NCBI GenBank assembly: GCA_029907355.1
Contig: JARYLZ010000008.1
Coordinates: 1,098 to 65,097 of the forward strand
Origin: Bacteroidota bacterium
GTDB taxonomy: Bacteria > Bacteroidota > Ignavibacteria > SZUA-365
Reading direction: 5' to 3'
DNA: 64,000 nucleotides
A program made the position numbers and the translations under genes. Position 1 is the first letter of the stretch, and each line of letters starts with the position of its first letter. The notes beneath the pieces were generated by a model. That model was not told where the DNA came from and did no database searches. It saw only the letters and a list, made by a program, of their open reading frames with translations. Of this stretch, positions 6,525 through 31,643 are shown piece after piece.

Positions 6525-6808
6525 AGATTTCGCTCCGCCGCTCGCCGTGCCCGTTTCCCGGCATCGCTTCGTGCAGTTCATTCGCCCGCTTTTCCGCAAC
6601 GGGCGGCACGCACCTCCGTTCACCCACCAATCGGTTTTTCGGGTGTTCGGGGTTTCCCGACGAAACATGTCAAGATATCCCGTGTATCGACGAAATGGAA
6701 ACGATGCGATGGATGTAACGCTGCGATGACCGTACGGTAAGCACGTCTGCACGGTTCAATGTCTCGATCCACCGAAGAAAAAACGAGAAGAGAAACGCTG
6801 CCCTTTAT

Positions 6809-7333
6809 TCAAAAGACGAACGGGATGAACATCCGGCTTCTCTTCATGTACGCGACGTATTCCTGACCGAATTTTTCGACGCTCTCCCTCTCCTCGACCT
6901 TCGCCGTCGCATAGAGGATCGCGGTGACGCCTCCCGCAAGACAGACGTCGAGCACCGACGGCGACTTCATGGTCATGCCCCACGCGAAGAGGATCAGCGA
7001 GCCGTACAGGGGGTGGCGGACACGCTTGTACAATCCGACGGTCACGAGCCTCGTCGTGTGATCGAGATGTCCCGCCGGCTTGCCGAATCGAACGAGAACG
7101 CGGAACCCCTCCGCCGCGAAGAAAAGGGAAACGAGGAGCAGGATCCACGAGGAGATGCCAAACGCAGACAGGGGACCATCGAACCACCCGTCGATGTTCA
7201 TGAGGACGAGGACTGCGATCCCTTCCAAGGCGAAGAAACGAAAAAAACCGTGCGATTTCGGATTCGTCAAGGAAGGCCACGAGTATGCGGCGATCGAGAC
7301 GGATACGAGAATGAAAACGAGCGGAATCAACAT
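6809..7333 (-). CDS. Isoprenylcysteine carboxylmethyltransferase/PEMT-family membrane methyltransferase
   Basis: LVTVGLYKRVRHPLY and EERE...FGQEY..Y...RMFIP motifs; hydrophobic protein. Confidence 0.85.
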   Translation of the reverse strand: MLIPLVFILVSVSIAAYSWPSLTNPKSHGFFRFFALEGIAVLVLMNIDGWFDGPLSAFGISSWILLLVSLFFAAEGFRVLVRFGKPAGHLDHTTRLVTVGLYKRVRHPLYGSLILFAWGMTMKSPSVLDVCLAGGVTAILYATAKVEERESVEKFGQEYVAYMKRSRMFIPFVF

Positions 7334-7750
7334 AGGGTTTCTCGAAGCGGTCGAAGAAAGCGTCGTACTCTATGGGCACACGGAGGCCTTATCTCGAAAT
7401 GCTGCGGACCTGGAAGGGACCATATGCTGCTGCTCGTGCGTACGATCCGCCGGTGGATAGCCGAGTCGACAGGGAAGAAAAAAGGCGCTTCCGCCCGGCA
7501 CGGTGCGGGAATGCGGAGGGGGTCGTTTCACGTTCAACCGGGCAGTGCATCGATCCCGATGTGTCCAGGCGGCACCGTCGCGCGAAGATGCGGCAGGGTG
7601 ACGGGCTCTTCGAACAGCTTTTCCCTCGGAACAGCGGGCGTGATGTCTTGGACGGTCGCATTCCATGCGCTACCTTTTCCGTCGTGCCCTCGGGCTCGTT
7701 CGAGAAATCCCGCAGGGCGACGCGAGATCTACCACCCCGAGGCTTTACGC

Positions 7751-10477
7751 ATGAACATACACAATCTCGAACCGCTCTTTCACCCTCGGCGCATCGCCCT
7801 CGTGGGTGTCACACCGAACCCGCAGAGCGTCGGCGGGAAAATCCTCTCGAACCTCGTCGGCGGTGGGTTCCGCGGCGTCGTGTACCCTGTCAGCCCGGGG
7901 TCCGAGGCGGTGCTCGGCATCCCCTGCTTCCCCGACATGGCGAGCCTTCCGAAGTCACCGGACCTCGCCATCATCTGTGCGCCGGCCGAACAAGTCCCCG
8001 CGCTCGTGCGCGCGTGCGGGGAATGCGGGACGGGCGGCATCATCGTCGTGTCCGCAGGATTCCGGGAAATCGGGCAAACGGGAAGGGCGCTGGAGGAAGC
8101 CGTGGCGGCGGAACGCGCGCGTTTCCCCGGCATGCGTCTTCTCGGGCCGAATTGCCTCGGCATCATCGTCCCCGGTACGAACATGAATGCCAGTTTCGCG
8201 GGCGGCATGCCGCGCGACGGGCATGTGGCCTTCATTTCGCAATCGGGCGCACTCTGCTCATCCGTCCTCGACTGGGCCATCGAGGAGCGCGTGGGGTTTT
8301 CGTACTTCGTTTCCATCGGTAACGCACTCGACGTGGACGTGGGCGACCTGATCGATTTCTTCGGCGAGGACGAGAAGACGAAATCCATCATCCTGTACAT
8401 CGAGTCCATCGGGCGGGCGCGGCAGTTCATGAGCGCCGCGCGCTCCTTCGCGCGTTCGAAACCGATCCTCGCGTACAAGGCGGGGCGCTTCGGTGCGTCG
8501 GCGGCAGCGGCAGCATCCCACACGGGGGCCATGGCCAGCGAGGATGCCGTCTACGACGCCGCGTTCCAACGGGCCGGCTTGGCGCGTGTCTTCGACATCG
8601 GGGAAATATTCGATTGCGCCGAGCTCCTCGGGCGGCAGAAAATTCCGGCGGGGCCTCGCCTGTGCATCCTCACGAATGCGGGCGGGCCGGGCGTCATGGC
8701 GAGCGACGCCCTCCTCGCCTCGAACGGCGTGCTCGCGACGCTCTCCGACGAGTCTATGGCACGCCTCAACCAGTGTCTCCCCCCGATGTGGTCGCACGGC
8801 AATCCCGTCGACGTGCTCGGCGACGCACGTTCCAAGCGTTTCGAGAAAGCGATGGATGTCCTCCTCGAGGATGCGGGCATCGACGCCCTGCTCGTCATCC
8901 TGACCCCGCAAGCGATGACGAACCCCGATACGATCGCCAAGGTTGTCGGTGAGCGCGCCCGGACCACGCAGAAACCCGTGCTCGCGGCATGGCTCGGCGG
9001 GGCGAGCATGCGGGAGGGCATCCGCATCCTCAACGATGCCGGCGTCCCGACGTACACGACGCCGGAACAGGCTGTCCGGGCGTTCATGACCCTCGTCTCG
9101 TGGGGGCGTAATCTCGAAATCCTTTACGAAACGCCACGCGACGTCGCGGTGCAGATACCCTACGACCGGAAACAGATCCGGAACCACTTCCACTCGCTCG
9201 TTGCGGAAGAGGGGGACATCCTGCCCGAGCACATCTCGAAGATGCTGCTCGATGCCTACGGCATCCCCGCCACGCGGCCGTACCCGGCTTCCACGGCCGA
9301 CGAGGCGGCGGAGATCGCGGACCGTATCGGCTACCCCGTCGTCCTGAAAATCCTCTCGCGCGACATCACCCACAAGAGCGACGTCGGCGGAGTCGCCCTC
9401 GGCCTCACGGGCACGGACGCCGTCCGGTCCGCTTTCCGCTCGATGATCGACACGGCGAGGGAGCGCGCACCGGCGGCGCGTCTCGACGGCGTGACGGTTC
9501 AGCGGATGGTCTCCCGGAGGGATTCCGTCGAGCTGATCCTCGGATGCCGGAAAGACCCCGTCTTCGGCACCGTGATCATGGCAGGGATGGGGGGCGTGAC
9601 GGCGGAATTGTTCGGCGACCGCGCGCTGGGGTTCCCCCCGCTGAACGAGCGCCTCGCCCGGCGCATGCTCGAATCGCTGAAAATCTGGCCGCTCCTGACA
9701 GGCTACCGCGGCCGCCCGCCCATGAATATCGACAGCCTCATCGAGGCATTGATCCGGCTCTCCTACCTCGCCGCGGACTACCCGGAAATCGTCGAGCTCG
9801 ATATCAATCCCTTGCTCGTGACGACTACCGACACCATCGCCCTCGATGCGCGGATCGTTCTCGACCGGAATGCGATGGGGAAAGACCAGAAACCGTACGC
9901 GCATCTCGCCCTCCGTCCTTACCCCGAGGAACTCGTCCGCACGGCGACGCTCAAGGACGGGACACCCGTCACCCTCCGCCCGATCCGACCGGAAGACGAG
10001 CCGCTCTGGTTCGATATGCTCCGCAGTTGCTCCCGCGAATCCATCTACACGCGGTTCCGTTCCTTCTTCCACTGGGAATCTCACCACGTCGCCGTGCGCT
10101 ACTGCTACATCGATTACGAACGCGAGATCGCCATCGTCGCCGAGCGGACCGAAAACGAGAAGCGCTATCTCATCGGCGTGGGTCGCCTCATCGCGGAGCC
10201 GGACCTGCACCGCGCGGAGTATGCCGTTCTCGTCACGGATGCGTGGCAGAACCGCGGTCTTGGGGGGCTCTTGACCGACTACTGCATGGAGATCGCACGC
10301 ATGTGGGGAATCCGCAAGGTCATCGCCCAGACGACCAGCGACAACCCCCGCATGGTCGCCGTTTTCCGCGAGCGCGATTTCGCCATCATCCCGGACCCCG
10401 ACGGTTCGCTCGTCGACGTCGAAAAGGATATCCCGGATACGGCAGGTCCCTCAACTGAGCTCCCTGCGGGGAACTGA
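7751..10477 (+). CDS. Bifunctional NDP-forming acyl-CoA synthetase-like / GNAT protein (Pat/YfiQ-type protein lysine acetyltransferase)
   Basis: CoA-binding N-terminus (GPNCLG, SQSGA, TNAGGPG, NPVD), ATP-grasp region (HKSDVGGV, ELDINPL) and C-terminal GNAT (WQNRGLG). Start taken as ATG 7751. Confidence 0.92.
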   Translation: MNIHNLEPLFHPRRIALVGVTPNPQSVGGKILSNLVGGGFRGVVYPVSPGSEAVLGIPCFPDMASLPKSPDLAIICAPAEQVPALVRACGECGTGGIIVVSAGFREIGQTGRALEEAVAAERARFPGMRLLGPNCLGIIVPGTNMNASFAGGMPRDGHVAFISQSGALCSSVLDWAIEERVGFSYFVSIGNALDVDVGDLIDFFGEDEKTKSIILYIESIGRARQFMSAARSFARSKPILAYKAGRFGASAAAAASHTGAMASEDAVYDAAFQRAGLARVFDIGEIFDCAELLGRQKIPAGPRLCILTNAGGPGVMASDALLASNGVLATLSDESMARLNQCLPPMWSHGNPVDVLGDARSKRFEKAMDVLLEDAGIDALLVILTPQAMTNPDTIAKVVGERARTTQKPVLAAWLGGASMREGIRILNDAGVPTYTTPEQAVRAFMTLVSWGRNLEILYETPRDVAVQIPYDRKQIRNHFHSLVAEEGDILPEHISKMLLDAYGIPATRPYPASTADEAAEIADRIGYPVVLKILSRDITHKSDVGGVALGLTGTDAVRSAFRSMIDTARERAPAARLDGVTVQRMVSRRDSVELILGCRKDPVFGTVIMAGMGGVTAELFGDRALGFPPLNERLARRMLESLKIWPLLTGYRGRPPMNIDSLIEALIRLSYLAADYPEIVELDINPLLVTTTDTIALDARIVLDRNAMGKDQKPYAHLALRPYPEELVRTATLKDGTPVTLRPIRPEDEPLWFDMLRSCSRESIYTRFRSFFHWESHHVAVRYCYIDYEREIAIVAERTENEKRYLIGVGRLIAEPDLHRAEYAVLVTDAWQNRGLGGLLTDYCMEIARMWGIRKVIAQTTSDNPRMVAVFRERDFAIIPDPDGSLVDVEKDIPDTAGPSTELPAGN

Positions 10478-10845
10478 CAGGCGATCGCAAGACGGCTCAT
10501 CCTTCATCCGCCTGCTTCACCCCTTTCCCCCGAATTCCTCGGCCACCGCGAGGAAATGATATGAGGGACCGCATGGTACCTCGTCGATGACATGTGCCGA
10601 TGCCGTTCATGCCCTTTCCCCGGGAAAATCGCGGATGGTTTTCTTCCCACAGTCAAAGGAACCGGCCGGCGAAGCGTTACGCCATCGCTGCGCTTTCCTC
10701 GGGGAAGATCCCCGACGAAGATATCGAGAGACACGGCAAGGAAGCAGGCGGAACAGGGGCGACCATCGGGTGGGCATCATGGGAACGACGCTGAGGGTGC
10801 ATTTCCGTTCGTTTCTCCCGGTATGCTTCCGGCGAGGCCGTCCAT

Positions 10846-12420
10846 TCACCGCTGCAGGCGCTCGTACACGATATAGAACGCGTTCGAATACGCTCGGCGG
10901 TAGTATGTTGCGAGAGTTGAATCGTGCTCTATCCAGTAGCGCGCGATTTCCGCGCCGTCGGGACTCGCTTCGCGTCCGACGATCACCCACGTGAACGCAC
11001 GGGAAAGAACTTCCGGGTTTCGAAACAGGGTGTCGCGGTTCAACGCCGTCGTGAACCGCGCGAGGCGGATCCCGCTCGTCTGCATGATTCGGTGCGATTG
11101 CCCCGTCCCCGTCACCGCCAGGATACGACCGCCTTTGTCATGTGCTCCGAGGAACTCTCCGACAGCGACGGCATACGGGGTTTGCCGGTAATAGAAGCCG
11201 CCCGCGGCGTCCGCGACGGTCACGACGTTCCCCGCCTGACGCGCGAACTGCACAACAGCCGAGGCGAGGAGGAGCAGGATGAGGATGACTCGGAGAAGGG
11301 GTTGCGTGATACGCTTGCCCGCGGCTTCCGCGGCGAACGCGGCCGAAAGCGCGAGCAACGGCATGAGGAGAAGGACGTACCGCGAGTTCCACCAGCGGGT
11401 CATCTCTGCGACACCCAGGTACAACGAGAGGATCGTGAACGCGGGGGGGGTAAGAAACGCGCTGAAGAGAAACACCGTTGCCGCGCGGGGACGACAACGC
11501 GCAAGGCGCAGGGCGCCGAACACGGAGACGAGGAGGGGGGCGACGCCGACTGCCGCGAAGAGCGTGGCCACGTAGATGGAAAGCACGTTCCATGCCTGGA
11601 GATAGTACTGCCCCCGGACCGGCCGGTGTTTCGCTTGCCATGCGGCCGAGTAGTACTCGGCCCGGTGGAATGCCAGCGCGTCGCCGAACCGCGTATGGTT
11701 CCACACCAACCACAAGGCGATGCCGAGAAAACAGGCAACGGCAAGCGCGGCCGATCGGACCGTATCCTTCGCTCCCATGCGCCGGCGCACAGCGTCCCAC
11801 ACGAGCGCGAGGAAGACGATGCAAGCGAACGGCCAAGCCTCGTAACGGCAGAGCGTCGCAGCCGCCGTCGACAGGGCGGCGAGGGCGAGGCGGCGGACGC
11901 CCCGCTGCGGCCGCAGATCGCGCATATGCGCCCAGGCATTGTACACGGCGGCGATCATGAAAAAGAGCGCGATGGTTTCCGTCATCGCCGTCATGCTGAT
12001 GTAGAGCATGTTCGGGTTGAGGGCGTAGAACACGGCTGCGAAGAGGCCGGCCCCGGGCGATGCGGTCAGTTCCGCCGCCAGCCGGTAGAGCATCACCGCA
12101 CTCCATGCGAGGAGAGGGAGGCAAACGACGGCACCGGCGAGCCCCGACGCGAAGAGGAAATCCACGCGGGCGAACGGGGCGAACAACAAAGCGGGGAGAG
12201 GAAGCCATACGGTGCCGAGCCAGTGGAGTCCGGGGGAGATGGAATCCGTAATGAGACGGGCGCCGACGAGGCGCGAATTCGCATCCCCGTAGAAAGCGAA
12301 GAAACGCGGTTCGATGAGGGAAGACAGGAGTGCGACGGCGACGCCGAGCGCGCAAACACCCGTAAAGATGGCCCGCGGAATGGCATCCATGCCGAGGTTT
12401 CGATCGAACGCTCGTGCCAT
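10846..12420 (-). CDS. GT-C fold integral membrane glycosyltransferase (GT39/PMT_2-like)
   Basis: YGDANSRL...LGTVWLPLP, NPNMLY..TAMTE and TLCRYEAW motifs; many TM helices; soluble C-terminal domain. Confidence 0.75.
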   Translation of the reverse strand: MARAFDRNLGMDAIPRAIFTGVCALGVAVALLSSLIEPRFFAFYGDANSRLVGARLITDSISPGLHWLGTVWLPLPALLFAPFARVDFLFASGLAGAVVCLPLLAWSAVMLYRLAAELTASPGAGLFAAVFYALNPNMLYISMTAMTETIALFFMIAAVYNAWAHMRDLRPQRGVRRLALAALSTAAATLCRYEAWPFACIVFLALVWDAVRRRMGAKDTVRSAALAVACFLGIALWLVWNHTRFGDALAFHRAEYYSAAWQAKHRPVRGQYYLQAWNVLSIYVATLFAAVGVAPLLVSVFGALRLARCRPRAATVFLFSAFLTPPAFTILSLYLGVAEMTRWWNSRYVLLLMPLLALSAAFAAEAAGKRITQPLLRVILILLLLASAVVQFARQAGNVVTVADAAGGFYYRQTPYAVAVGEFLGAHDKGGRILAVTGTGQSHRIMQTSGIRLARFTTALNRDTLFRNPEVLSRAFTWVIVGREASPDGAEIARYWIEHDSTLATYYRRAYSNAFYIVYERLQR

Positions 12421-12423
12421 GGG

Positions 12424-13602
12424 TCAGATCCCGAACAGGAGCACATAGGAAAGGAAAACGGTGAAACCGAAACGCAGGGAACGGTTCAGCACGACCCGTC
12501 CCCGCTCGGCATACGTCAGGAGAATCCCGACCCCGAAGCTGAGAACGATGAAGACCGCCGCGAGGAGGAGACCGTTCTCGAACGTGAAGGCGTTCCGCCA
12601 GACCCTGCTGAACGACCAGATCCATGTATTGCCGAACACGACCAGGACGTGGGCCGTGTAGATGTGCAGGGTCTTCCTGCTCAATTCGGAGTAGAACCGC
12701 TCGAAGCGGCGCGTGAGATTGAACACGACCGAGTAGGCGCCGATGAGGATCAGCGAGAGGCCCACTTTTTCACAGAAGAGAAACGGGCTGGAGATGTAGA
12801 AGTCGTGCGGGGGGAGGAGATGCCGCCCGTACACGCCCGCCGTCAACGCGAGGATCGTCACGACGATACCCAACTCGCCGATTCTCTGGGCGAATTTCCA
12901 CGTGTCGTTTTCCCGGAGCAGGGCGAGCGCGTACGAACCGATCGCTGCCCCGATGAAGAGAAAACCGCTGTGCGGGAAGATCGAAAAAAAACTCCCGCCT
13001 TTATAGGTCAGGTAATGCGCGAAAAACGGCGGGAGAAAAGCGAACCAGTCGACCCGGTGCACCCAGGGTGTCGCGGCGGCGATGAGCGTGCCGACGATGG
13101 TAGCCGAAGCGATGAACGCCCGGTCGCTCCTGCTCAGCGCCATGACACCGACCAGCATGAGGAGGGACACTCCGATGATGTTGAGCGTACCGACGCGGAA
13201 GAAGGCGAACCACCGGTCCGCGGGGAGGACGAACAGGTCCCATACCCTGTTGCCCGGGAAGATCAGCATGTAATCGACGAGGATGAGGAGTAGGGCGCGG
13301 CGGATGCGCTTTCGGAGAATACGAGGCAGCACACGGCCGCGCTCATCGCGCCGGATGCCGACGAAATTCACCATCCCCGAAATGAGGAGGAATGTCGGCG
13401 AGGTCAGTCCGCGAAGCCACTGGTAAATCATCCCGAAAAAACCGTCTTGCGGGATTTCCGCCGGGATGACGTACGTGCCTACCGTATGCCCCTGGATCAT
13501 CATGAAGACGGCCATGAGGCGGGCGAAATCCAGGACAGCGAACCGCGGGTGGCGGCTTACGACGGCAGGGGGAACGGGCCGGTCCTCGGAAAAATCAGTC
13601 AT
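12424..13602 (-). CDS. Membrane acyltransferase (DUF1624/HGSNAT-like or Acyl_transf_3 family)
   Basis: N-terminal LDFARLMAVFMMIQGH, FLLISG and SIFPHSGF motifs; about 10 TM helices. Confidence 0.7.
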   Translation of the reverse strand: MTDFSEDRPVPPAVVSRHPRFAVLDFARLMAVFMMIQGHTVGTYVIPAEIPQDGFFGMIYQWLRGLTSPTFLLISGMVNFVGIRRDERGRVLPRILRKRIRRALLLILVDYMLIFPGNRVWDLFVLPADRWFAFFRVGTLNIIGVSLLMLVGVMALSRSDRAFIASATIVGTLIAAATPWVHRVDWFAFLPPFFAHYLTYKGGSFFSIFPHSGFLFIGAAIGSYALALLRENDTWKFAQRIGELGIVVTILALTAGVYGRHLLPPHDFYISSPFLFCEKVGLSLILIGAYSVVFNLTRRFERFYSELSRKTLHIYTAHVLVVFGNTWIWSFSRVWRNAFTFENGLLLAAVFIVLSFGVGILLTYAERGRVVLNRSLRFGFTVFLSYVLLFGI

Positions 13603-13686
13603 GGGTCGGGGCTTGCGAGCAAGCGGTCCGAGACTCGCTTGGGCCGGAGAAAGATACGAGGAAATCCGATTCGACGGCGCCGGCTA

Positions 13687-15102
13687 TCACAGACCGATTT
13701 CCACCTCGACCCAGACGCGGTGGATGTTGTAATCGTGGTACGCGTCGTTCGAGGCGTTACGGGTGAAATGGTATCCCGCCCCGGCGGTCAGGAGCGCAGT
13801 ACCGTCCGCACGCATCAATACGGGCGTCGCGAGGAGGACCTGCGCGGTAAACCGCTCGTCCTTCCGCTGGGGAAACCCCGGCAGATCATCCCCGTCGAGG
13901 CTCGCTGCCGAACGCGGGTAACGGCGCCGCGCAGCGGCGAGTTCCGTTTCCATCGCGAGGCGCGGCATGATGCCTGCCCGAAACGTCGCTACCGCCTCGT
14001 CGGCCTCGTAGCCGTAACGATCCTCGAAGAAATCGTCCTCCGTCGCCGCTGCCAAGCCACGCTGATCCACATAACGTGCCGTGTTGCTCGGATTGATCCT
14101 CCGGAGCACGGAAAGCGTAAGGGAGTTGCTCGCGGCGATGTTCAGGACGGCGCCGCCGCCGAAGACGACCTGGCTCGCCGACGGCGTCGAAAACTCCGAG
14201 ACGATCTTCTTCTTCGGTTTGACGCCGCCCTTTCCTTTCCCGCTGTTCCCCGTTTCGATGAACACCGTGTCATGAACGGTCTCCGTATACCGTTTCACGC
14301 CGTACTCGGTGAAACAGAACAATTCCGTCGCCTGCCCCACCCGGGCGCTCAGCGTCAACGAGCCGTCGTTCTCGAGATGCGTGAACTGGACGAATGAGGG
14401 GTATTGTTTGAACGCGAACTCGTACTCCGCACGCGCCATGAGCGGTCCCGAGACGTGCTTCCGGAGCATCGCGGAGACCGACGCTCTCCGGAAATCGTAG
14501 AACGCGAAGACGGGCTCGTCGAAACGCGCCGCGACGACCGGTTTGACGATGAGGTAGGTGACGAGGCTGTCGCTGAACGCCTCTCCCGTCGAGGTACTCG
14601 CAGGTACGCACGATCCCGTTTCCCCGCCGTCCCATGGAGACGCCCGATGGGGCATTCCGCCCGCCCGTTCGCCATCGTGCAGGCGTTCCTCCTCGTCGCT
14701 TTCCTCTTCCATTTCCTCCCCGCCGATCTCTTCTCCGTTGTCCTCCGCCTCCTCGTCGGTATCTGCCGTGTGGAAATCCACCTGCCATTGGATATAGATG
14801 CCCGCCGTGTGCTGGTGGTAAGACCGGGTATCGTACGTGCGGAACAGCGCGGCTCCGGAGTACCAGAACGGCTGGAGGAAGACGTAATCCCCCCCGATGT
14901 CGTACGAGAACGCGGCGAAAAGCTGGTGATAGACATCGGCTCGCTTGTCGTGGAACGCCCAGGAATTATCGTCGTAGGTACTCGCGAGAAAGGCAGCGGC
15001 GTTGAACTGCGCACGGGCGTTCCCGCCGAGGGCGAGGAAGGAAATCACGACAACGCCGACCGCGTGGACCCGCATCGCGGCGGCTGGAGCGAAAGGTTTC
15101 AT
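13687..15102 (-). CDS. Putative outer-membrane beta-barrel protein
   Basis: Signal peptide (…ARA|QF), YDDN near the N-terminus, alternating aromatic strands, and the ending RNASND...YNIHRVWVEVEIGL. Start ATG overlaps the GT2 stop. Confidence 0.65.
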   Translation of the reverse strand: MKPFAPAAAMRVHAVGVVVISFLALGGNARAQFNAAAFLASTYDDNSWAFHDKRADVYHQLFAAFSYDIGGDYVFLQPFWYSGAALFRTYDTRSYHQHTAGIYIQWQVDFHTADTDEEAEDNGEEIGGEEMEEESDEEERLHDGERAGGMPHRASPWDGGETGSCVPASTSTGEAFSDSLVTYLIVKPVVAARFDEPVFAFYDFRRASVSAMLRKHVSGPLMARAEYEFAFKQYPSFVQFTHLENDGSLTLSARVGQATELFCFTEYGVKRYTETVHDTVFIETGNSGKGKGGVKPKKKIVSEFSTPSASQVVFGGGAVLNIAASNSLTLSVLRRINPSNTARYVDQRGLAAATEDDFFEDRYGYEADEAVATFRAGIMPRLAMETELAAARRRYPRSAASLDGDDLPGFPQRKDERFTAQVLLATPVLMRADGTALLTAGAGYHFTRNASNDAYHDYNIHRVWVEVEIGL

Positions 15103-16370
15103 GGGGTGCTCTCCGAACCGAAGCGAACGGTTTTCTCCCAGGTGCGCGGTCGTTTGCGGACCACGTCCAGCCAAAATGCACGAGCGACGACGTAGAGCCA
15201 GAGCTGGCAATACGTGAAGTACATCAAGCCGACGATCCCCAGGGCCTCGAGTGAATCTTCTCCGTCGTATGCGAGGGCGAGGAGGATTTCCGCGAGGAAG
15301 AGAACGACGGCGATGACCCAGACGAGGGTATACGGGCCCGGGAGGGTGATGGCGACCGTTTTCGTCACGGCGAGCAGGAAGAGGATGTCGGACGTCAGGA
15401 TCGCGAAGAAGAAGACGTAGTAGAGCGAAAGGGAGTACAGCAGTTCGAGGCGGAGTTTCCTCCCCGCGATCTCCTTCCTGCGGCGGAGGAATTTCTTCGA
15501 AACGTAGTTGTTCCCGCGTACCCACCGTGTCCGCTGGCGCACCCACACCCCCCATCGTTCCGGTTCCTGTTCGTACGTCACCGCGTAAGGGATGAACTTG
15601 ATCCTGCGATTCCTCATGTACATACGGATGCTCAGTTCCGCATCTTCGGTGATCGCTTCCTCGTCCCACCCTCCGAGCTCATCGACGACGGAGCGCCGGA
15701 TGACGAAATTCGTCCCTGGGAGCGTCGCGATCTGGAGCAGCCGCCAGCGTCCCGCCTGCAGGATGGACTGGAAGCTCAACGTCTCGATGTTGATGAACCG
15801 CGTCAGCAGGTTTTTCCTCTTGTTCCGCGTGCGGAATTTACCGATCACCGCGCCGAGTTCCGGGTGTAGGAGGAGTTCGGCGGTGAGGTAACGGAGAGCA
15901 TCGGGGGCGGGGGTGTTATCGGCGTCGTACACGGCGATCACGTCCGCTTTCGCCGAACGGATGCCGATGTTGAGCGCACGCGATTTCCCTTTTCCCCCCT
16001 CGCCAGCAGGGACAGCCAGGTGGACGATCCGCGGGTCACGTCGTCGCCGCTCGGCGATGATTTCTCCCGTGCGATCCGTGCTCCCGTCGTCGATGACGAT
16101 GATCTCGAGCTTGTCGTGCGGGTAATCGAGCGCGCACATCGCGTCGAGCGTCGCGCCGATCACCAATTCCTCGTTGTGTGCCGGGATGAGGATGGAAACG
16201 AACGGGTAATCGAACACGCTCTCGTCCACGCGCCGTTTCTCCCTCGACGAGCGACGGTAGTGGAAATAGCCCGCGACGGTGAGCACGAGCTGGTACGCGA
16301 TCATGAACCAGATGAGGATGACGGCGAGCAGGAAGAGAATGCTCAGGTCGATTTCGAGGAAGGTTTCCAT
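15099..16370 (-). CDS. Processive GT2 polysaccharide synthase, YdaM/PgaC/cellulose-synthase-like
   Basis: IPAHNEE, DDGSTD, GKSRALN, YDAD, TED and QRTRW motifs, plus TLPGTNF...GGWDEEAITED...EQEPE as recalled for Bacillus YdaM. N- and C-terminal TM helices. Confidence 0.9.
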   Translation of the reverse strand: METFLEIDLSILFLLAVILIWFMIAYQLVLTVAGYFHYRRSSREKRRVDESVFDYPFVSILIPAHNEELVIGATLDAMCALDYPHDKLEIIVIDDGSTDRTGEIIAERRRRDPRIVHLAVPAGEGGKGKSRALNIGIRSAKADVIAVYDADNTPAPDALRYLTAELLLHPELGAVIGKFRTRNKRKNLLTRFINIETLSFQSILQAGRWRLLQIATLPGTNFVIRRSVVDELGGWDEEAITEDAELSIRMYMRNRRIKFIPYAVTYEQEPERWGVWVRQRTRWVRGNNYVSKKFLRRRKEIAGRKLRLELLYSLSLYYVFFFAILTSDILFLLAVTKTVAITLPGPYTLVWVIAVVLFLAEILLALAYDGEDSLEALGIVGLMYFTYCQLWLYVVARAFWLDVVRKRPRTWEKTVRFGSESTP

Positions 16371-16373
16371 GCT

Positions 16374-19300
16374 TCACCCTCCGGCGGTGCCGCCGTGCCT
16401 CCGCTGAAGGGGCTGCAGTTTCACCGAGACGTAGAAAACGAGCAGCATCCCCACGGCGATCGCGCCGAAAAGGACGATGATCGAGGACGACAGGAGGCTC
16501 GTGATGTCGATGCCGTAGGCGACGGTGCTCTTTGTCGTCACGCGCACGTCGTGCGTCCCGGGGGGGAGCGGGATGGTATATCTCTCGTGGCCTTTCCACA
16601 CGACGAGCTGCTGTTCGAAGCCGTCGATGAACAGCGCGAGAGGCGCCTTGTTGAAGGACGCGAGGCATCGGCCGGTCGAGGTGTAGCGGAACGACACGCT
16701 CCGTTCGCCCTCCTCGAGGGAAACGAGTTCGCCGGTGAGCGACAGCAGGGAGGCGTGGAGGAGATCCGACGAAAAGAAGGGACCGCCTTCGACATCCGTG
16801 CGGACGGTATGCAGGCCGGGCGGGAGCAGTACCGCACCCCCTGCAGTGGTCCGAACGATGCCGTCCACCTCGATGAGGGGGTGCTGTTCTCCCGCCACGA
16901 ACGAAAACGCCACAGGGGAAGAAAAACGGTATCCGCCGGCTATCCGCTGGAGACGGACCGGTGCCGCAGCGGCATGTGCGAGGAAAGGGATGTCCTGGGC
17001 GTTGACGCTCGACTCCGAGTAGATGACGACGCGCGAAGCCTCGTCCGAGCAGACGGATACCAGCTGGAACGCCTCGGTCCCGGTTTGGATGAGCGTCGGG
17101 AACATCGTCGGCGCGTCCTCCGGCCTGAAGGCGAGGATGTTGATGTCCAGGCCGAAATTCCGCCCCACCAGGGCGCGATACCGCTCTGCGATCCCGCGGT
17201 ACCGACCGGGCTCCTCGGACCATCGGGACATCGGGTCCTCGATGATCGCCGTGAAAGGGTATTCGGCGCGAAGGCTCAAAATGCGTTCGACGTCGATCGC
17301 TTGCGAGACCCGCAACTCGGGGGAGCCGAGATTGTCGAGTACGGTGACGAGGGTTTCGAACCCCGGGCGGGTGCGCGCGATGCGCGCCGCAAGGTCGAGC
17401 AGTCGTCTATGGATGGAGACGATCTCCTCCACGCGGTAATCCTCGAAGGTTTTCCAGGCCACGGGGTTCCTCTTCCAGAAGAACGACGACGACGGGTCCA
17501 GCAGGGAAACGGGGTCGAACCCGTGCTTTTCCGCGAACGCCCGCCTCGCCGAAACGTGCATCGGTGTGAGGAGATCGGCATCGGTGGGCCCGCGGTTTCC
17601 GGACTCGAAGGACACTTCGGCGAAGTTGACGCCGTCGAAATCGTACTGCCGGAGGAAACGGCCGTACTCCGCAATGACGGCATTCATGCAGGCCGTGTCC
17701 GTCAAGGCGACAGGGTATCGCCAAGACGGCCGGACGTCCGCGCCGAGGCGGTTCTTCTCCCGCCACTGGGGATGATCGTTCCAGAATTTTTGGCTCACCT
17801 GCGGCGGTTCCAACCATGCGTACACGAGGATCCCGTTCGCGTGGCACAGGTCGATCAAGCGCCGGTAGTCGTAGGTGAACTTCGGGTACTGATGCCATCC
17901 CGCGGCGTGGATGGCACGCACACCCGCTGCGGCCCATCGCTTGACGAGATCCTCCACGCTCACGGTCCCCCGGTAGCCGGGGTCGAAGAACATCTCGACG
18001 CTGTTCCGGCGCAAGACGGGAAACAGCTCGAAGTACCGCCGGATGTACTCCGCGATGTACGGGAAACGGCTGAACCCTTCCCCGCTGACCGGGTCGAAAC
18101 GGCACGCGAAATAGAGGATACGGCCGTCCCCGAATTTCCGCCCGATAACGATGGGGGCTTCGCTCCCTTCGTCCTGCGCGAAAATCTCGTCGTCATCCTC
18201 GATCATCACCTTCGCGAACGACTCGGGCACGCGCCAGCTGATCCCCTCTTCGGGGAATAACCGGTCATGGACCCGGTCTACCTTGAGGACGGTGGTGGTG
18301 TGACGAATGCCCAGTTCCTTCGTGAACTCCGTCTTCCCGTCCGTGATGCACCCGCCGCCGCGCCGGACCCATTCGACGACGGCGCTGAAATCCCTCACGG
18401 AAAGCGCGTCGACGACGTTATAGGGTACGATCACGAGATTATAGGGCGAAAGATCCAGGTTCCCGCCGACACGGATGGTGTCGACAGGGATGCCGACCGC
18501 GTTGAGGGCCCGGACGAAACTCTGCTGATCGCGCATGGCTCCGCCTTTGGCCGTGGAATCCCACAGGATCGCGACCCGAGCCTCGATGCGGTTCGGTTTC
18601 GGCGGGAACAGGCGGTCGAGAATGCCCTGCAGCGTCCTCGTGACCCTTTGGGCGAATGTCGGTTCACGGCTCCGCAGTTCCGTCGGTGTCGCGACGTAGA
18701 TTTCTCCGGACCGGAGGGATACGGACCTCGTGACGACGCCGGTGACGCGATGCGGCTGTGTGGTCGATCGGATGGTTTTCCCTTCCCGGTCGATGATCGT
18801 CTCCCGCAGGTACTGGTCCGAAAGCCTCAGCGTGATCGTCGCCCCTCCCGTTACGATCGCCTTGTCGGGAAGAAGGACGCGGTGCGTGTCTTCACGAAGG
18901 TCATGGAAAGTGTACCCGAGTTCGCGGACACCCCGGACGAGACGTTCCATCTCGCCGGGCGGAACGTAGGAATGGCAGAAAAACCCCACCCACCCGTCGC
19001 GCACGCCGAGCGCGACGCGTGCGGCCTCGAGCATGCGTGTCACATTCTCTGCGCTGAGCCCGGGGTCGTCCGGGTCGACGGGGACGTAACCAAGGTTTTC
19101 CGGGTATATTTGTTGCCCATACAGGTCCCGTCGTATCGGGTAGGGGAAGAACTGGCTGTAATCGGCGTTGTTGATGGCGAGGCGCTGTTCCATCGCCGTC
19201 GTGAAAATATTCGAGACGGCTTCGTACGTCGTTCGCGACGCCGTGTAGTGTGGGGTTTCCCAGAGGAGAGGGTAGATGCCGTTCCGCATGCACTCCTCGA

Positions 19301-20318
19301 TTCCCTCTACGATCTTCCTCCGCACGCCCTCCACCGTCTCGCCGCGGATCGTGTCGTTCCTCGCCGCATCCCAGAACTCGTAATCGACAGCCGTAACGCC
19401 CTTGTACTGGTGCGTGACGCCGTGCATGAGCACCGTACCCCCCTTGCGGACCATGTAGCGGACGGCATCGGCGAAATCGGGCTTGTCCGATATCGACACC
19501 CGGAGACCGGCCCCCGGGTCGACGTAGAACGGGACGAGGGAAATGACGAAGGGGACGTTCTCCCCCGCGAGCAGATCCGCCACGGCGCGCAGACGATCGG
19601 GGTCCTCGAGCGGATGCACATCTTCGATGCGGATCAGCGCGCGGTGCGAGACGGGGTGATCTCGGTGAAGCATGTCATGGAGGAGATCCGCGAAGAGGAG
19701 ATAACGGTCCGTTTCCGTTGCGGAGGCGAACGGCGAGTCCGCCACGTACCAAAATTCGCCGCTTCGTAGAATGTACGGGACGGTCGACCGTTTCGACGAT
19801 GCCGTCGCGATCACCTGACAACGGGAAGGGTCCGTGACGCGCACGATCGTTATGTTCGGCTCCTCCTTCGTAAACGTGTCGTTGCCGCGTCGCACGATAG
19901 GGTAACCGGTGGACGTGTCGACGGCGACCGGTTCGAACCCGTAGTGGACGGAAAAGGGGGCGAACGCATGATAGGCGAGTATGCCCGTGTGGAGCCAGAC
20001 GAACGTACGCGACCGCGCCGATACGTCGCGCAGGAACACGGGGGGAGGCGAACAGTGCAAGGTGAAACCGATGAAGAACACGGCGTCGTAGCGGCCCATC
20101 GTCCCCGCCCGGTAGTCCGCGACAGGGATGATATCGATGTCGGCGTCGAAATGCCCCAGGAGAGCGCCGAGCTGCCGTGCGTCGCCTTTCGCGAGGTTCG
20201 CGGGGACATCCCCCCCTTCGTACACGACGAGAATGGAGAGCGGCGCAGCGTGGAGTGCCTCCGACGACAGGAAGCCTGCCAAAAGAGCCAGGACGAGTAT
20301 GAATCGTTTCCGGGTCAT
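16374..20318 (-). CDS. Large exported DUF2334 (polysaccharide deacetylase-like) protein fused to a putative glycoside-hydrolase-like domain, with C-terminal TM anchor
   Basis: Signal peptide; [15 protein letters not shown] and WETPHY (DUF2334/YdaL-like); later AGWH...GILVYAWLE...[11 protein letters not shown]-barrel-like region; hydrophobic C-terminal helix. Confidence 0.75.
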
Positions 20319-20322
20319 GTGT

Positions 20323-22722
20323 TCATTTTACCACGGTAATGGGAATCACGCTGGCCGCATCGCCTGTCTTCAGGACTCCGTAATATGTGCCCGAAGAGGG
20401 GAAATCCCTCATGTCCACGGGAATGGACAAGCGACCGTCTCCCGCCGTGAGAACGGTATGGGTAAGATCGAGCACCTGCCTCCCTGTCCTGTCGTACATG
20501 ACGAGCGAGGGCGCCGCACGCCAGCCGGGCGAGAGAAAGATCGTGATGACCGACCGGCTTGTGACGGGGTTCGGGGCGACCGTTTCGAGCCGGGCACCGC
20601 CGCCGTCGAAGAAAGAAAAAAAGACTTCCGCCTCCGGAAACAAGGTCTCCGTCCCGTCCATATCCACGCAGCGCAGGCGGTAGCGGACGGTGTCGCCCCC
20701 TCGGTCTCCGCACGGGTCCGCCAGGGAATAGCGCGCTCCGCTCCCATCGCCGCTTCGTGCCGGGAAGAAAGCCCGTTGCTCCCAACCGCGCCCCGCGTGC
20801 CGTTCGACGAGAAACCCCACAACGCCCTCCTCTTGCGCCGTTTCCCATCGGATGAAGGCGGAGGAACCCAACGGTTCGACCGAAAAGAGGGAGAGCGTGA
20901 CCGGCGTGGGGTACGATGCGTTCGCGAGCACCATGCCGTATTCGCCGGTACAGAAAGCGACGCCTCCCGCGAGAGCGGCACCGTAAACGGCATACGTCGT
21001 GTGCACCGGGTCGGGTGTCCAGTTCCACCCTCCGTCGCTGCTCCGGAGGATCAGCCCGCCTTCGCCCACGGCGAAGAGATCCGTCGGAGAAGTCTGCACG
21101 ACGCGGTAGATCGGCACCGTCACGTTGGTCGTCGTCGAGTCCCAATCGGCACCTGCATTCGTCGTGGCCAGCAACACGCCGGCGTCCCCGGAAACCCACC
21201 CCCTGTCCGCCGAGAGGACGACAGAGAAGAGTGCGTCGAGCGTGTAGGAGGTTTGAGGAACCCATGTCGCACCGCCGTTCGTCGTCCGAAGAATGACGCC
21301 GTCCGCCCCGACGGCCGTCCCGAGCATGTCGGTGAGCATATCCACCGCGAAGAGGTCCTTGAACGTCCCGCTGGGGACGGGTGTCCATGCCGCGCCCCCG
21401 TTGGTGGACTTGAGGATTCTGCCGCCGGCGCCGACGGCGAAGCCGACGGTCGGCGTCGGGAAATCGATGCCGTTCAGCGCGCTCGTCACCCCGCTCGGTA
21501 CGACGGTCCAGACCGCTCCTCCGTCCGTTGTCCGGAGGATCACACCGCCCGACCCGCATGCCCATGCCCGCAGCGCGTCGACAGCGCACACGGCATAGAG
21601 GGGGAGTTGTGTCCCTGAATTCTGCACTTGCCACGTCCATCCCCCGTCGCTGCTTTTCACGATGGTACCGGCGTCTCCCACGGCCCAGACCGCGTTGACG
21701 ACCGCCCCCGCCACCGCGTTGAGTGCGGCCCGTGCACCCGTGACGACGCTGCCGAACACCATCGCCGACGAGGAGCGCGTGATCTCTCCCTCCAGTCCGA
21801 CGAGGACCACCGCGGTCGTCGTGCCCCCCCCCGCCACCATTCCCTCGAAGCCGTTCGTCGTCCCCGAAGCGAGGGCGCTCCATGTCGCTCCGCCGTCCGT
21901 CGACCTGAGGATCGTCCCGTTCTCGCCGCATGCATAACCGTTCATCGCGTCGAGAAACACGACCTTGTTGAGGTCCTGGGTCGTACCCGTGCCTGCCGAT
22001 CGTGTCCACGTATTTCCGCCGTTCGTCGTCATGAGTACGGTTCCGTACGTTCCCGCTGCCCATCCGTGCTGTGCATCGAGGAAGAAGACGCCGAGGAGAT
22101 CCGCCATAGGACCGAACACGGTCTGCGCGACCCAGGTCGCCCCGCCGTCCGTCGTGCGGCGGATGGTTTTTCCCGCACCGACACACCACCCCCTCTGCTG
22201 GTCGACGAAGCAGATGTCGTTGAGATTACTCGAGGCGTTGCTGGCCTGCGGCGTCCATGTCGTCCCGTTCGTGCTAAAGAAGATGAGACCGTTGTCCCCT
22301 ACGCAATAGATACCGCTTCCCGTGCTCGTGACTTGGTTGATCCCTTCGGTGGTGGGACGCGTCAGCGGTACCCAGGTCGTACCCCCGTCCGTCGTTGAGA
22401 GGACCACGCCGTCGTCCCCCGCAGCAAGGGCGGTGGTGGGGCCGATCGCTTTCACGCCGCGGAGAAACGAGTAGACGCTGCTTTCCTGCGTTTCCCATGT
22501 CGCGCCCCCGTTCGTCGTCCGGACGATGATCCCCGCGTTCCCTACCGCCCAACCTATGGGCGACGCCGTGGCGAAGGACACGTTCCAGAGATCGTTCCCT
22601 TGAGGTCTGGGGTTTCTCCATCCCCATTGCGCTGCGGTGCTCCCCGCCATGAGGGCGAGGCACGAAAGGATAAAAAGCACAGGGTTTCCGGATATCCGCA
22701 GCAATCTGCTCAAGATGCTCAT
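20323..22722 (-). CDS. YCF48/BNR-repeat double beta-propeller protein with T9SS C-terminal domain
   Basis: About 14 repeats of WAVG.xG.I..TT(D/N)GGATW; PVTLSLF linker; PNP...SGTYYGVL...ITVVK CTD; signal peptide. Confidence 0.85.
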
Positions 22723-22803
22723 GTTCTCTCAGAGGTGAGGTATTGTCGGGGAAATGACAGAGATGTTCTTTTTCACCGTGTTACCCTAATGCATCGGGGA
22801 AAC

Positions 22804-24948
22804 TCAATGTGTGAAATGAACGGCCTGGAGACTCCGATTCCCATTCCACTCTAAAACGAGGAAGTATATACCTGCGGTCGGGAAATCGTCCGCGTAAAGG
22901 GTGAGTTCTCCAGTCCCGCCAACCGAAGACCGCGAGGCAAGACGGTGGAGAAGCGATGCACTGAGATCGCGAACGAGACAGCCGTAGACATCATAGATGC
23001 GGAGCGTGATGTCCGCTAGCGGAAAGCCCACACCCTCGACGCGGGCTGTGCTCCGCACGGGCACGATCGTTTCTCGCGTGAACGGGTTCGGGTAAGCAGG
23101 GCCGAGCTGAAACGTCTGCTCTTCCCTATCCCGCTCGACATGCACCACATGCTGCGTGTTCGTGAGAACCGTCCCGTAATCGCCCGATATCATCACGGTT
23201 CCATCCCGCGCGTCGATGCAGAACAGGTCGTGGAACGTCGGGCAATACTGCCTGCACCAATGTATTCCCCCGTCCGAGGAGCGAAGGACGAGTCCGGAAT
23301 CGCCGACCGCCCAGAGGTCCGAGCGGTCGAGACCGGCGATGACGTACAGAGATCCCCCGACGCCCGAGGTCTGCACCACCCACGTTTCCCCGCCGTCCGT
23401 CGTGTGGGCGATGGAACCCTCGTCGCCCACCGACCAGCCTTCCGAGATCCCCATGAAACGGACCCAGTACATGGTCCGGGATGTGCCTGTACGGCTTCTC
23501 CGCCATGAACCCCCGCCGTCGGTGCTCCGGAGGACAATTCCGTTTTCGCCAACGACGACTACGTTGTCGGCATCGAAAGCATGGAGACCATACAGGTATT
23601 CTACGACGCCGGCGTCCCTGCGCACCCATGTCGCGCCCCCGTCCGTCGTTCGGAGTATGCATCCGAGTTCGCCGACAGCCCAGCCGTCCCATTCGTTCGC
23701 GAAATCCACGGCGAGCAGAATATTCGAGTACGGGTTCGTCTGCTGGATCCACGTCCTGCCGCCGTCCCGGGTGTGGAGAATGATCCCATATTCGCCGACC
23801 GCCCATGTCTTCGAAGCGGAAACGGTTTTCCCCCCATAGAGGTTGTTTCGGAAGCCCGTGTTTTCCTCCGTCCACGTCGCCCCGCCGTCCGTCGTGTGAA
23901 TGACGATGCCGCTTTCACCGAAGCCCCAGCCGTTTCGGCCGTCGGCGAAGCTGATCCAGTTCACGCTTTTCCGTGTCCCGAACGAAACCGCTCTCCACGA
24001 GACGCCGGCATCGGTGGAGAGAAGCATATACCCGAAATCCCCGACGACAATGATGTTCTGGTCCTCACCCCCCACGCCTTCGAGCACTTCATCCCCGAGA
24101 CCGCTCTCGATCCGTCTCCATAAAGCGCCTCCGTCCATGGAGTGCAGTAGAATGCCCCCGTCGCAGGCGGCCCAGAGGCCGATCGGCCCGGCGTAGAGCG
24201 CATTGATGTTGCGGTTGATACCGGACTGCTGGGTGTCCCAGCGCAAACCGCCGTTCACCGTCGTATAGAGGGATCCGCCCGAACCCGCTACCCAGCCCGT
24301 CGTCTGGTTCACGAAAACGATGTCGAAAAGGTCGGGGCGTCCCTGGACGTTTCTCCGGTCCCATGATGCCCCTCCGTCCGTCGTTCTCAGGACGGTTCCC
24401 GATGCGCCCGCTGCGTAACCGTGTGTCGCGGAAACGAAGTAAACCGCGTTGAGCGTGACGGATACGCCGGTGGATTGCACGGCCCACGTTTCCCCGCCGT
24501 CGGTTGTCCGTATCATCGTTCCGTTGTCCCCGCATGCCCAACCGTTCAAGGCATCCAGGAAGACCACGTCGTTCAGACCTTCCGTCGTACCCGTCGCGCA
24601 TTCCTTCCACTCGTACCCACCGTTCGTCGTCCTCATGCAGGTTCCGTTATCACCGACGGCGAAAGCGACGCGATCGTCGACGACGGCGACGGCGATGAGG
24701 TCATCCGTGAGGCCGTCCATCTCGCTGTACCATGTCGAGCCGCCATCGAACGAATGGAGAATCGTCCCGTCGTCGCCTACGGACCACGTATTCGAGCGAT
24801 CCGCGAAACCGACGCTCGTGAGACGGTTTCCCTGGGGTTTCGGGTTGGACCACATCAACCGTCCCTGAGCGAAGGCGGCGGTAGGGAAGAGGAGAAGAAT
24901 GAAAAATGAAATCTGTCGGAGGATGGGGACGCAGGTGTCGAGGCGCAT
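22804..24948 (-). CDS. YCF48/BNR-repeat double beta-propeller protein with T9SS C-terminal domain (paralog of 20323..22722)
   Basis: Same 14-repeat layout, same N-terminal W.NP.PQGN motif, and AYPNPF...AGIYFL CTD. Likely start is 24948. Confidence 0.85.
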   Translation of the reverse strand: MRLDTCVPILRQISFFILLLFPTAAFAQGRLMWSNPKPQGNRLTSVGFADRSNTWSVGDDGTILHSFDGGSTWYSEMDGLTDDLIAVAVVDDRVAFAVGDNGTCMRTTNGGYEWKECATGTTEGLNDVVFLDALNGWACGDNGTMIRTTDGGETWAVQSTGVSVTLNAVYFVSATHGYAAGASGTVLRTTDGGASWDRRNVQGRPDLFDIVFVNQTTGWVAGSGGSLYTTVNGGLRWDTQQSGINRNINALYAGPIGLWAACDGGILLHSMDGGALWRRIESGLGDEVLEGVGGEDQNIIVVGDFGYMLLSTDAGVSWRAVSFGTRKSVNWISFADGRNGWGFGESGIVIHTTDGGATWTEENTGFRNNLYGGKTVSASKTWAVGEYGIILHTRDGGRTWIQQTNPYSNILLAVDFANEWDGWAVGELGCILRTTDGGATWVRRDAGVVEYLYGLHAFDADNVVVVGENGIVLRSTDGGGSWRRSRTGTSRTMYWVRFMGISEGWSVGDEGSIAHTTDGGETWVVQTSGVGGSLYVIAGLDRSDLWAVGDSGLVLRSSDGGIHWCRQYCPTFHDLFCIDARDGTVMISGDYGTVLTNTQHVVHVERDREEQTFQLGPAYPNPFTRETIVPVRSTARVEGVGFPLADITLRIYDVYGCLVRDLSASLLHRLASRSSVGGTGELTLYADDFPTAGIYFLVLEWNGNRSLQAVHFTH

Positions 24949-25011
24949 GGATGCATATATGAGTCGGGGGAGATACGCGATCTGCCAGCACAGCGTGTGG
25001 GCAGATGGTTT

Positions 25012-25019
25012 CAAATATA
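25012..25019 (-). promoter_or_regulatory. Possible Bacteroidota-type -7 promoter element (TATATTTG)
   Basis: Matches TAnnTTTG on the minus strand, about 65 bp upstream of the 24948 start. Confidence 0.35.
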
Positions 25020-25149
25020 GCCCGGGAAGAATTGCCCGCCAGTCCCTCCGAAATGGGACAGAGAAAATTCCTTCCAGGACAGTAGGTAAGCCCTGACAGA
25101 CGGATCGAATCGGGCTACCGTCCTTTCAAGATGGGATGTCGCGATGCCC

Positions 25150-30826: not shown

Positions 30827-30862
30827 CGCGCATCCCGAGCCATTTCAATGGACACACAACCC

Positions 30863-31633: not shown

Positions 31634-31643
31634 GGCTTCCGTC

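Follow-up and report, generated by a model that had tools for sequence, protein, structure and literature searches.

On the minus strand of a 64-kb stretch of DNA from a Bacteroidota bacterium (the window, by which we mean the whole stretch analysed) lies a block of genes that seems to encode a machinery to make, modify and export an exopolysaccharide. Gene A (16374-20318) encodes a periplasmic multidomain DUF2334 protein of 1314 amino acids, gene B (15099-16370) a membrane glycosyltransferase family 2 (GT2) synthase of the PssC/YdaM type (423 amino acids), and gene C (13687-15102) a protein of 471 amino acids, counted from the ATG that overlaps the stop codon of B, which models as an outer-membrane beta-barrel. 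Two accessory genes follow, D (12424-13602, 392 amino acids) for a polytopic HGSNAT/AT3-like acyltransferase and E (10846-12420, 524 amino acids) for a GT-C type (PMT/ArnT-like) membrane glycosyltransferase. The open reading frame coordinates agree with the five co-oriented genes that a first-pass annotation had described from the letters of this DNA, with gaps of 3, -4, 84 and 3 nucleotides (nt) at A/B, B/C, C/D and D/E, and the overlap of B and C, read directly in the sequence, is ATGA. The domain types proposed there for A, B, D and E were recovered with Pfam, and the barrel of C with AlphaFold and Foldseek, since no family matches it. The five genes stand as described, but the genes abutting them upstream had been overlooked: a gene for a BNR/Ycf48-like double beta-propeller (20323-22722, minus strand, 799 amino acids, Pfam PSII_BNR) ends 4 nt before the ATG of A, so that the co-oriented block extends further upstream than five genes, and a second, co-oriented propeller gene (22804-25014, minus strand, 736 amino acids, Pfam PSII_BNR and Sortilin-Vps10) sits 81 nt upstream of the first. 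A to E are not chance reading frames: of the 7999 candidates scored, 661 are relatives of A at E<=0.001.

The translation of B carries the processive-synthase motifs DDGSTD, YDADN, ITED and QRTRW, and several GT2 families of Pfam match it. Hydrophobic segments at residues 7-25 and 308-367 flank the GT-A domain, and in PDB sequence searches B matched BcsA chains best (E 3e-20). Judged by its sequence, B is a processive membrane GT2 synthase of the BcsA/PgaC/PssC class. A tblastn search against annotated plasmid-collection records found the best match of B in Listeria monocytogenes, over the full length of the protein, with 193 of 414 residues identical (47%, E 6e-131), compared with 88 of 284 (31%, E 8e-33) for E. 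coli PgaC; NfrB matched with E 2e-4 over 132 residues. The Listeria record (L070) encodes, in order, a membrane protein of 491, a DUF2334 protein of 498, a GT2 of 416, a BcsB protein of 683 and a GGDEF protein of 284 amino acids, and we read it as pssA-E (lmo0527-0531) from its gene products compared with the accessible text of PMC4125290. A FastTree phylogeny of 101 rows (79 representatives of 380-480 amino acids chosen from 150, 15 copies from related loci, B of the window and six references) unites B, the 15 locus copies and the Listeria, Acinetobacter and Bacillus thuringiensis enzymes in a 42-row clade with a Shimodaira-Hasegawa-like support of 96. PgaC falls outside this clade. The tree thus bears out the placement that the first-pass annotation had expected, and by sequence B belongs to the PssC/YdaM clade, with the Listeria GT2 as a stand-in for B. 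subtilis YdaM.

The largest protein of the cluster, A, matches Pfam DUF2334 at residues 226-463 (E 8.9e-48, 163 bits), and a match to Glyco_hydro_42M is marginal. It begins with a signal peptide that can be cleaved, and its one hydrophobic helix at the C-terminus spans residues 1279-1297 (16428-16484, minus strand; hydropathy 2.63), followed by a basic tail, and therefore the bulk of the protein is predicted to be periplasmic. Residues S1274, W1276, S1277, I1281, F1284, G1285 and L1292, in or just before this anchor, are invariant or nearly so, which hints at a specific membrane partner. AlphaFold, given 79 aligned sequences, modelled residues 25-1224 with a mean pLDDT (predicted local distance difference test) of 88.9. 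In this model the N-terminal domain is alpha/beta, and the others are a DUF2334 barrel, a beta-sandwich, a GH42M/GATase-like domain, a triosephosphate isomerase (TIM) barrel of ~370 residues and further beta-sandwiches. The DUF2334 domain (18894-19706, minus strand, about residues 205-475) holds the motifs IRIED(233), H(299)GVTH(303), WETPHY(353-358) and H449. E232-D233, H299xxxH303, W353-Y358 and H449 do not vary among 16 aligned members of 45-66% identity, and the motifs are retained in relatives from Ralstonia, Burkholderia, Acidobacteria and Ignavibacteria. We take the ED, HxxxH and H residues to resemble the metal-binding and catalytic motifs of deacetylases of the CE4 type, and the motif set of A would accordingly appear intact and deacetylase-like. 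The TIM barrel (16959-18059, minus strand, about residues 754-1120) alternates strand and helix in the model as in glycoside hydrolases, and Pfam gives it a weak match to GHL6 (E 0.0027).

PDB sequence and profile searches with A returned nothing usable. When the model was compared with the PDB by Foldseek, the two top matches were PelA (9cgy, E 8e-12) and Agd3 (6nwz, E 6.7e-11), and others were the human N-deacetylase NDST1 (8ccy), Cwp19 and PgaB 42-655, together with the exo-beta-1,4-mannosidase 7bob, a GH36 galactosaminidase and a GH36 alpha-galactosidase. The C-terminal domain of PgaB (4p7q) matched with a template modelling (TM) score of 0.66-0.68 normalised to the target, a match that would belong to the TIM barrel of A. 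Stand-alone DUF2334 proteins (520-690 amino acids, from long contigs) cover 95-99% of the first 480 residues of A, and the label given by JGI to relatives of A is 'YdaL'. Because these stand-alone proteins span the first 480 residues, A can be seen as a YdaL-type protein lengthened by glycoside hydrolase-like modules, and with the position of B in the phylogeny the proposal of a YdaL/YdaM-type core holds. Residues 14-473 of A are 31% identical to a 578-residue DUF2334 protein of Ralstonia (E 4e-75). In Listeria PssB (L070:5476-6972) the ED, HxxxH and WETPHY residues are absent in both BLAST and MAFFT alignments, which fits the fully N-acetylated Pss product and suggests that PssB is a relative without catalytic activity.

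C, for which a signal peptide is predicted, matches no family of Pfam or NCBIfam. Its AlphaFold model, built from 23 sequences, has 16 strands (mean pLDDT 75.8, strands about 90) and three disordered loops, one of them a variable acidic stretch, and C accordingly models as an outer-membrane barrel. Foldseek matches include porins of the Occ family (OccD2) and the alginate exporter AlgE at TM scores of 0.41-0.46, and structural neighbours in the ESM Atlas include EpsL/BBP2_2 and TPR-barrel clusters; a role of C in polysaccharide export would be putative. The acidic insert, rich in aspartate and glutamate and disordered, covers about residues 113-178, and its length differs from one homologue to another. 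Conserved elements are a GKGKGG motif in a loop and an RNxSNDxYxD motif at the C-terminus, and the last residue is F in most homologues and L in the C of the window.

Among the accessory proteins, D matches HGSNAT_cat (45.1 bits, cut-off 22) and, just below the cut-off of 31, Acyl_transf_3 (29.8 bits). E has ten hydrophobic segments and matches PMT with 26.0 bits (cut-off 22.7) and PMT_2 with 24.0 bits, below the cut-off of 26.1. PDB sequence and profile searches with D and with E gave nothing usable. Both BNR proteins have C-terminal matches to sorting domains of the type IX secretion system (T9SS) below threshold (19.7 bits against a cut-off of 23 for the 799-residue protein), and the 799-residue propeller is likely to be T9SS cargo.

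The signature protein A is common. A scan of one genome per species gave at least 684 pattern matches to A, of which at least 668 stretches were confirmed, and 65 loci were retained. The best 120 of the 661 relatives are 46-67% identical to A and nearly all about 1300-1350 amino acids long. By depositor title the 65 loci come from Bacteroidota (28), Ignavibacteriota (19), Acidobacteriota (11), Pseudomonadota (4), Thermodesulfobacteriota (1) and Chlorobiota (1), with one unplaced. Several of the loci nearest to the window (L001, L002, L005) are titled Chromatiales or Syntrophobacter and L003 is titled Ignavibacteria, and such titles may be unreliable. T9SS genes, as in the window, are typical of the FCB group.

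Gene neighbourhoods were counted by tblastn over the 65 loci and the window, the denominators being the sources with enough flanking sequence. Of the 54 sources that have 1400 nt or more downstream of A, 53 show B as the next gene on the same strand (the exception is L043). Among the 49 with 3 kb or more there, 23 have a barrel of the C type no further than 10 kb downstream of A; in one more, L061, it is upstream. The conserved unit is thus A-B, with C in about half. The synteny of all five genes, on which the first-pass annotation had staked its proposal, breaks down beyond this unit: of the 44 sources offering 6 kb or more of downstream sequence, 3 have D and E beside A and B (L001, L003 and the window), where their order and place are the same and their proteins 52-66% identical. 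An acylated and/or branched polymer, as had been proposed, may thus apply at most to the small subclade of the window and not to the system as a whole. Near A-B in other loci we found an unrelated GT-C in five, a small PgfS/ArnC-like GT2 in three and both in two. On the upstream side 59 sources extend 1300 nt or more beyond A; in 13 of them the gene that abuts A there is a BNR gene, and 10 further loci have one downstream. In 22 of the same 59 sources the gene directly upstream of A on the same strand encodes a wecB-type non-hydrolysing UDP-GlcNAc 2-epimerase (L002, L016, L022-L024, L026, L027, L030, L037, L041, L043, L045, L047, L050, L053-L055, L058, L060, L061, L064 and L065), which scores 492.7 bits with the wecB equivalog TIGR00236 (cut-off 210). 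Nine acidobacterial loci (L028, L036, L044, L046, L051, L052, L056, L057 and L062) gave no detectable barrel, and all nine have a divergent gene pair upstream of A, encoding a ~590-residue protein that has no Pfam family and a bPH_5 protein.

The host was supposed to be a diderm, and the window itself speaks for this. It encodes PorV (48328-49497), a PorU-like C25 peptidase (49584-53687), both T9SS genes on the minus strand, and a TonB-dependent receptor, and therefore the host has an outer membrane and a T9SS; a T9SS cargo with a Por_Secre_tail domain is encoded at 44992-48261, on the same strand as the two T9SS genes. In agreement with the first-pass annotation, no cyclic di-GMP (c-di-GMP) receptor was seen in the operon, as none of the nine window proteins scanned with Pfam and NCBIfam has a PilZ, GGDEF or MshEN domain, and no recurrent neighbour of the GGDEF, PilZ or MshEN type was found in the 65 loci. 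An Rfam scan of positions 9000-29000 gave no family at gathering score, including no c-di-GMP riboswitch, and its one sub-threshold match is attributed to chance. A sigma-70 promoter scan was uninformative (2 sites seen and 4.2 expected).

In our opinion the cluster is rather probably a synthase-dependent exopolysaccharide system of the Listeria Pss/Bacillus Yda type, rebuilt for an envelope of two membranes, and its product is probably a partly deacetylated polymer based on N-acetylmannosamine (ManNAc). The Listeria Pss polymer is described as (-4)-beta-ManNAc-(beta1-4)[Gal-(alpha1-6)]-ManNAc in the accessible text of PMC13492145 and PMC5422440, and the authors of the Nfr study used linkage to wecB to infer UDP-ManNAc (PMC8669469, accessible text). 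With the ManNAc product of Listeria and the linkage of A to wecB, a ManNAc-based chain is the best guess. The Yda core, with which the first-pass annotation had compared the cluster, was well chosen, but the chemistry of the Listeria polymer and the wecB linkage, both pointing toward ManNAc, had been missed. A further likeness concerns the branching. Listeria PssA (L070:4008-5483) scores 564.8 bits with WsfD, an NCBIfam family named 'glycan biosynthesis hexose transferase', and WsfD of Paenibacillus alvei has been proposed to add an alpha-1,6 branch to ManNAc from a lipid carrier (PMC2943079, accessible text). This family membership suggests that PssA adds the alpha-1,6-Gal branch, and if PssA is such a branching enzyme, a lipid-carrier-dependent branching enzyme would be a recurring companion of this synthase type.

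We infer the contact between A and B, the polymer chemistry and the role of C in export, and would picture the system as follows. B would polymerise a chain of N-acetylhexosamine (HexNAc), most likely beta-1,4-ManNAc from UDP-ManNAc, and thread it through the inner membrane. Beside it, A would remove some of the N-acetyl groups at a metal-dependent site in its DUF2334 domain, and its TIM barrel could bind or trim the chain, as PgaB, PelA and Agd3 do with their own polymers. C would then pass the polymer through the outer membrane. In the subclade of the window alone, D might acylate the chain and E might take a side sugar from a polyprenyl-phosphate donor and attach it, as PssA of the WsfD family would do in Listeria. 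The BNR propellers, exported by the T9SS, may hold or shape the polymer at the surface, and regulation would not go through a c-di-GMP receptor encoded in the operon.

Several observations weigh against this reading. The BcsB-like and GGDEF-receptor subunits, which are needed in Listeria and Bacillus, are absent here: none of the nine window proteins scanned belongs to the BcsB family, and hhalign of the A family against Listeria PssD gave a probability of 0.3. The similarity between A and PssB is weak (21% over 126 residues, E 1e-7), and the Foldseek matches of A are matches of the whole model (residues 25-1224), not split by domain. The GT2 tree comes from FastTree alone and many of its inner forks have no support. 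The best NCBIfam family of B is PgaC_IcaA (TIGR03937; E 2.2e-50), with 171.8 bits against a cut-off of 422.3. There is no wecB in the 64-kb window, and according to the accessible text of PMC13274460 an alpha-Gal/GalNAc-specific lectin recognised the yda polymer of B. subtilis, so sugar specificity within the GT2 clade of B may vary. By tblastn, C was undetected near A-B in 26 of 49 sources, and D and E are as rare as given above. The acidobacterial ~590-residue protein was considered as a hidden porin and set aside, its language-model features pointing, as a lead only, to proteins of the GH42 type. E showed no BLAST similarity to PssA or to the GT-C of other loci, so that in sequence these three are not detectably homologous to one another. 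Finally, all 65 related loci come from metagenome-assembled genomes.

Not all of the genes need to serve the polymer. A possible but somewhat doubtful alternative is that the polysaccharide system consists of A-B with C alone, and that D, E and the BNR proteins have other tasks in the envelope (lipid A, glycosylation of lipoproteins or proteins, acylation), in which case D and E would neither acylate nor branch the polymer. The rarity of D and E beside A-B is what this would predict, and the 84-nt gap between C and D, the marginal Pfam matches of E and the lack of a polyprenyl-phosphate sugar synthase in the cluster go in the same direction. However, the place and order of D and E have been kept in the window, L001 and L003 despite their divergence, and unrelated GT-C proteins have been recruited beside A-B in other loci, some together with a PgfS/ArnC-like GT2. 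The Listeria operon also has a member of a lipid-carrier-dependent hexose transferase family, PssA/WsfD, and in 23 sources A-B or C has BNR genes as neighbours, on one side or the other.

It is improbable that the system is instead Pga-like, with B making beta-1,6-GlcNAc (poly-N-acetylglucosamine, PNAG), A standing in functionally for PgaB and C for the PgaA porin. The top NCBIfam family of B, the lack of wecB in the window and the presence of the PgaB C-terminal domain and PgaB 42-655 among the fold matches of A would fit with it. However, the PgaC_IcaA score of B is far below the cut-off of that family, B is closer to the GT2 of the Listeria ManNAc polymer than to PgaC, which the tree leaves outside the clade of B, and wecB abuts A in the 22 sources given above. 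Also hhalign showed no similarity between the A family and PgaB (probability 0.5) or between the C family and PgaA (probability 0.2). We likewise give little credence to the view that A is not a modifying enzyme but acts as scaffold or guide, as a synthase co-subunit like BcsB, or is a degradative enzyme recycling foreign glycans. In its favour, A has the topology of BcsB (signal peptide, large periplasmic body, one C-terminal helix), no BcsB-like gene is present here and Listeria has kept PssB in its operon without the putative catalytic residues. Against it, the ED, HxxxH, WETPHY and H449 residues are invariant in the 16 members and persist in the distant proteins of Ralstonia and Burkholderia, the model of A is closest in fold to active polysaccharide deacetylases and hydrolases, and the near-constant pairing with a synthase speaks against a purely catabolic role.

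Beyond the reading of a rebuilt Pss/Yda system that we prefer, a bolder one can be offered tentatively. The loci could represent a class of synthase-dependent secretion systems of diderms that has so far gone unrecognised, is widespread in Ignavibacteriota, Bacteroidota and Acidobacteriota and makes a cationic, partly de-N-acetylated beta-1,4-poly-ManNAc/ManN, a polymer of which we have met no description. A might then be the first DUF2334 protein with deacetylase activity and so amount to a new family of carbohydrate esterases, joined to a new glycoside hydrolase-like domain, with its conserved C-terminal helix replacing BcsB as the partner of the synthase, and C might be an export porin that lacks TPRs. 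To our knowledge only a handful of types of diderm synthase-dependent polysaccharide systems have been recognised, i.e. cellulose, alginate, PNAG, Pel and recently Nfr. The cluster would extend the Gram-positive Pss/Yda type to diderms, with a different answer for periplasmic modification and passage of the outer membrane and without the BcsB-like and c-di-GMP-receptor subunits, and DUF2334 gains a testable enzymatic role. The phyla of the hosts are abundant in sediments, soils and bioreactors, and as far as we know their matrix polymers are essentially unstudied.

Around the cluster the window holds other genes. Further upstream, a co-oriented gene (25150-27339, minus strand) encodes a 729-residue protein that reaches 198 bits with the model for the N-terminal part of AgmC (gliding motility), against a cut-off of 275, and that has no relatives among the 65 loci. 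A suf operon for iron-sulfur clusters (SufB, SufC, SufD, SufS and a NifU-like protein) lies at 29303-34725 on the plus strand. On the other side, convergent with E, a fusion of an ADP-forming acyl-CoA synthetase and a GNAT domain (a Pat-like protein acetyltransferase) is encoded at 7013-10477 on the plus strand, and L003 has the same neighbour. At 4391-6752 on the minus strand a phosphotransferase of the APH family is followed by a sugar nucleotidyltransferase, a pair that we presume to resemble those of amino-sugar salvage (anomeric kinase and uridylyltransferase) and that, if so, could feed UDP-HexNAc pools.

Listeria Pss is among the known systems closest to the cluster. In both, a DUF2334 protein with a C-terminal membrane helix is followed by a GT2, and the operon has an extracytoplasmic glycosyltransferase of the lipid-carrier type, PssA/WsfD there and E here. 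In contrast, the window has neither the BcsB-like PssD nor the GGDEF receptor PssE, and an outer-membrane barrel has been added to the cluster. A is 2.6 times as long as PssB, with a GATase-like domain and a TIM barrel in addition, and has retained the putative catalytic residues that are missing from PssB. In B. subtilis, YdaLMN is the catalytic core, and the ydaJKLMN operon has been set beside the Listeria pss system (PMC5422440 and PMC13274460, accessible text). With this operon the cluster shares the 'YdaL' label on relatives of A, but genes like ydaJ, ydaK and ydaN are missing here, and the likeness to YdaL and YdaM was judged via Listeria.

The logic of PgaABCD is the same in that a GT2 synthase works with a bifunctional periplasmic protein, made of a deacetylase and a glycoside hydrolase-like domain, and an outer-membrane barrel, and the C-terminal domain of PgaB has a fold like that in the model of A. 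The two systems differ in the synthase, as B is outside the PgaC clade at 31% identity, and in the barrel, as C has no TPR domain. PelA of the Pel system and Agd3 of the fungal galactosaminogalactan are, as A would be, multidomain secreted enzymes that deacetylate HexNAc polymers, and A resembles them in fold. They gave no sequence-level match in the PDB, however, the domain order of A is different, and its deacetylase-like domain is DUF2334 and not of the CE4/CE18 sequence family. The synthases of Pel and galactosaminogalactan are of other types than B.

The E. coli NfrB-NfrA-YbcH system likewise belongs to a diderm and is linked to wecB/UDP-ManNAc (PMC8669469, accessible text), as are relatives of the window system. 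In contrast, B is not of the NfrB type and has no MshEN domain, and C has neither an NfrA_C nor a TPR domain. Comparison of the A family by hhalign with YbcH (DUF4434) and its Ralstonia and Acinetobacter counterparts gave probabilities of at most 0.3. Two Gram-negative relatives had escaped the first-pass annotation. The megaplasmid of Ralstonia solanacearum (L067:2503-10835) carries an nfr-like cluster with an nfrB-like glycosyltransferase, an nfrA-like porin, wecB, an open reading frame of 105 amino acids, the DUF2334 protein of 578 amino acids and an open reading frame of 299 amino acids, and a query with the DUF2334 domain found Ralstonia in 136 of the 144 matched records. From this cluster it can be seen that DUF2334 also goes with a second, unrelated synthase type linked to ManNAc. 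In Acinetobacter baumannii (L071:6369-14289) a GT2 38% identical to B occurs with a gene annotated as BcsB (no Pfam match), and its neighbours encode a DUF4434-like protein, a divergent WecB and a protein with TPRs; this could possibly be a Gram-negative Pss-like system in a cultured species. We found no description of the arrangement of the window in the literature, most subscription journals being outside the coverage of the search. As a gene set it matches none of Pga, Pel, Bcs and Alg, as had been stated at first, and the same is true of Nfr.

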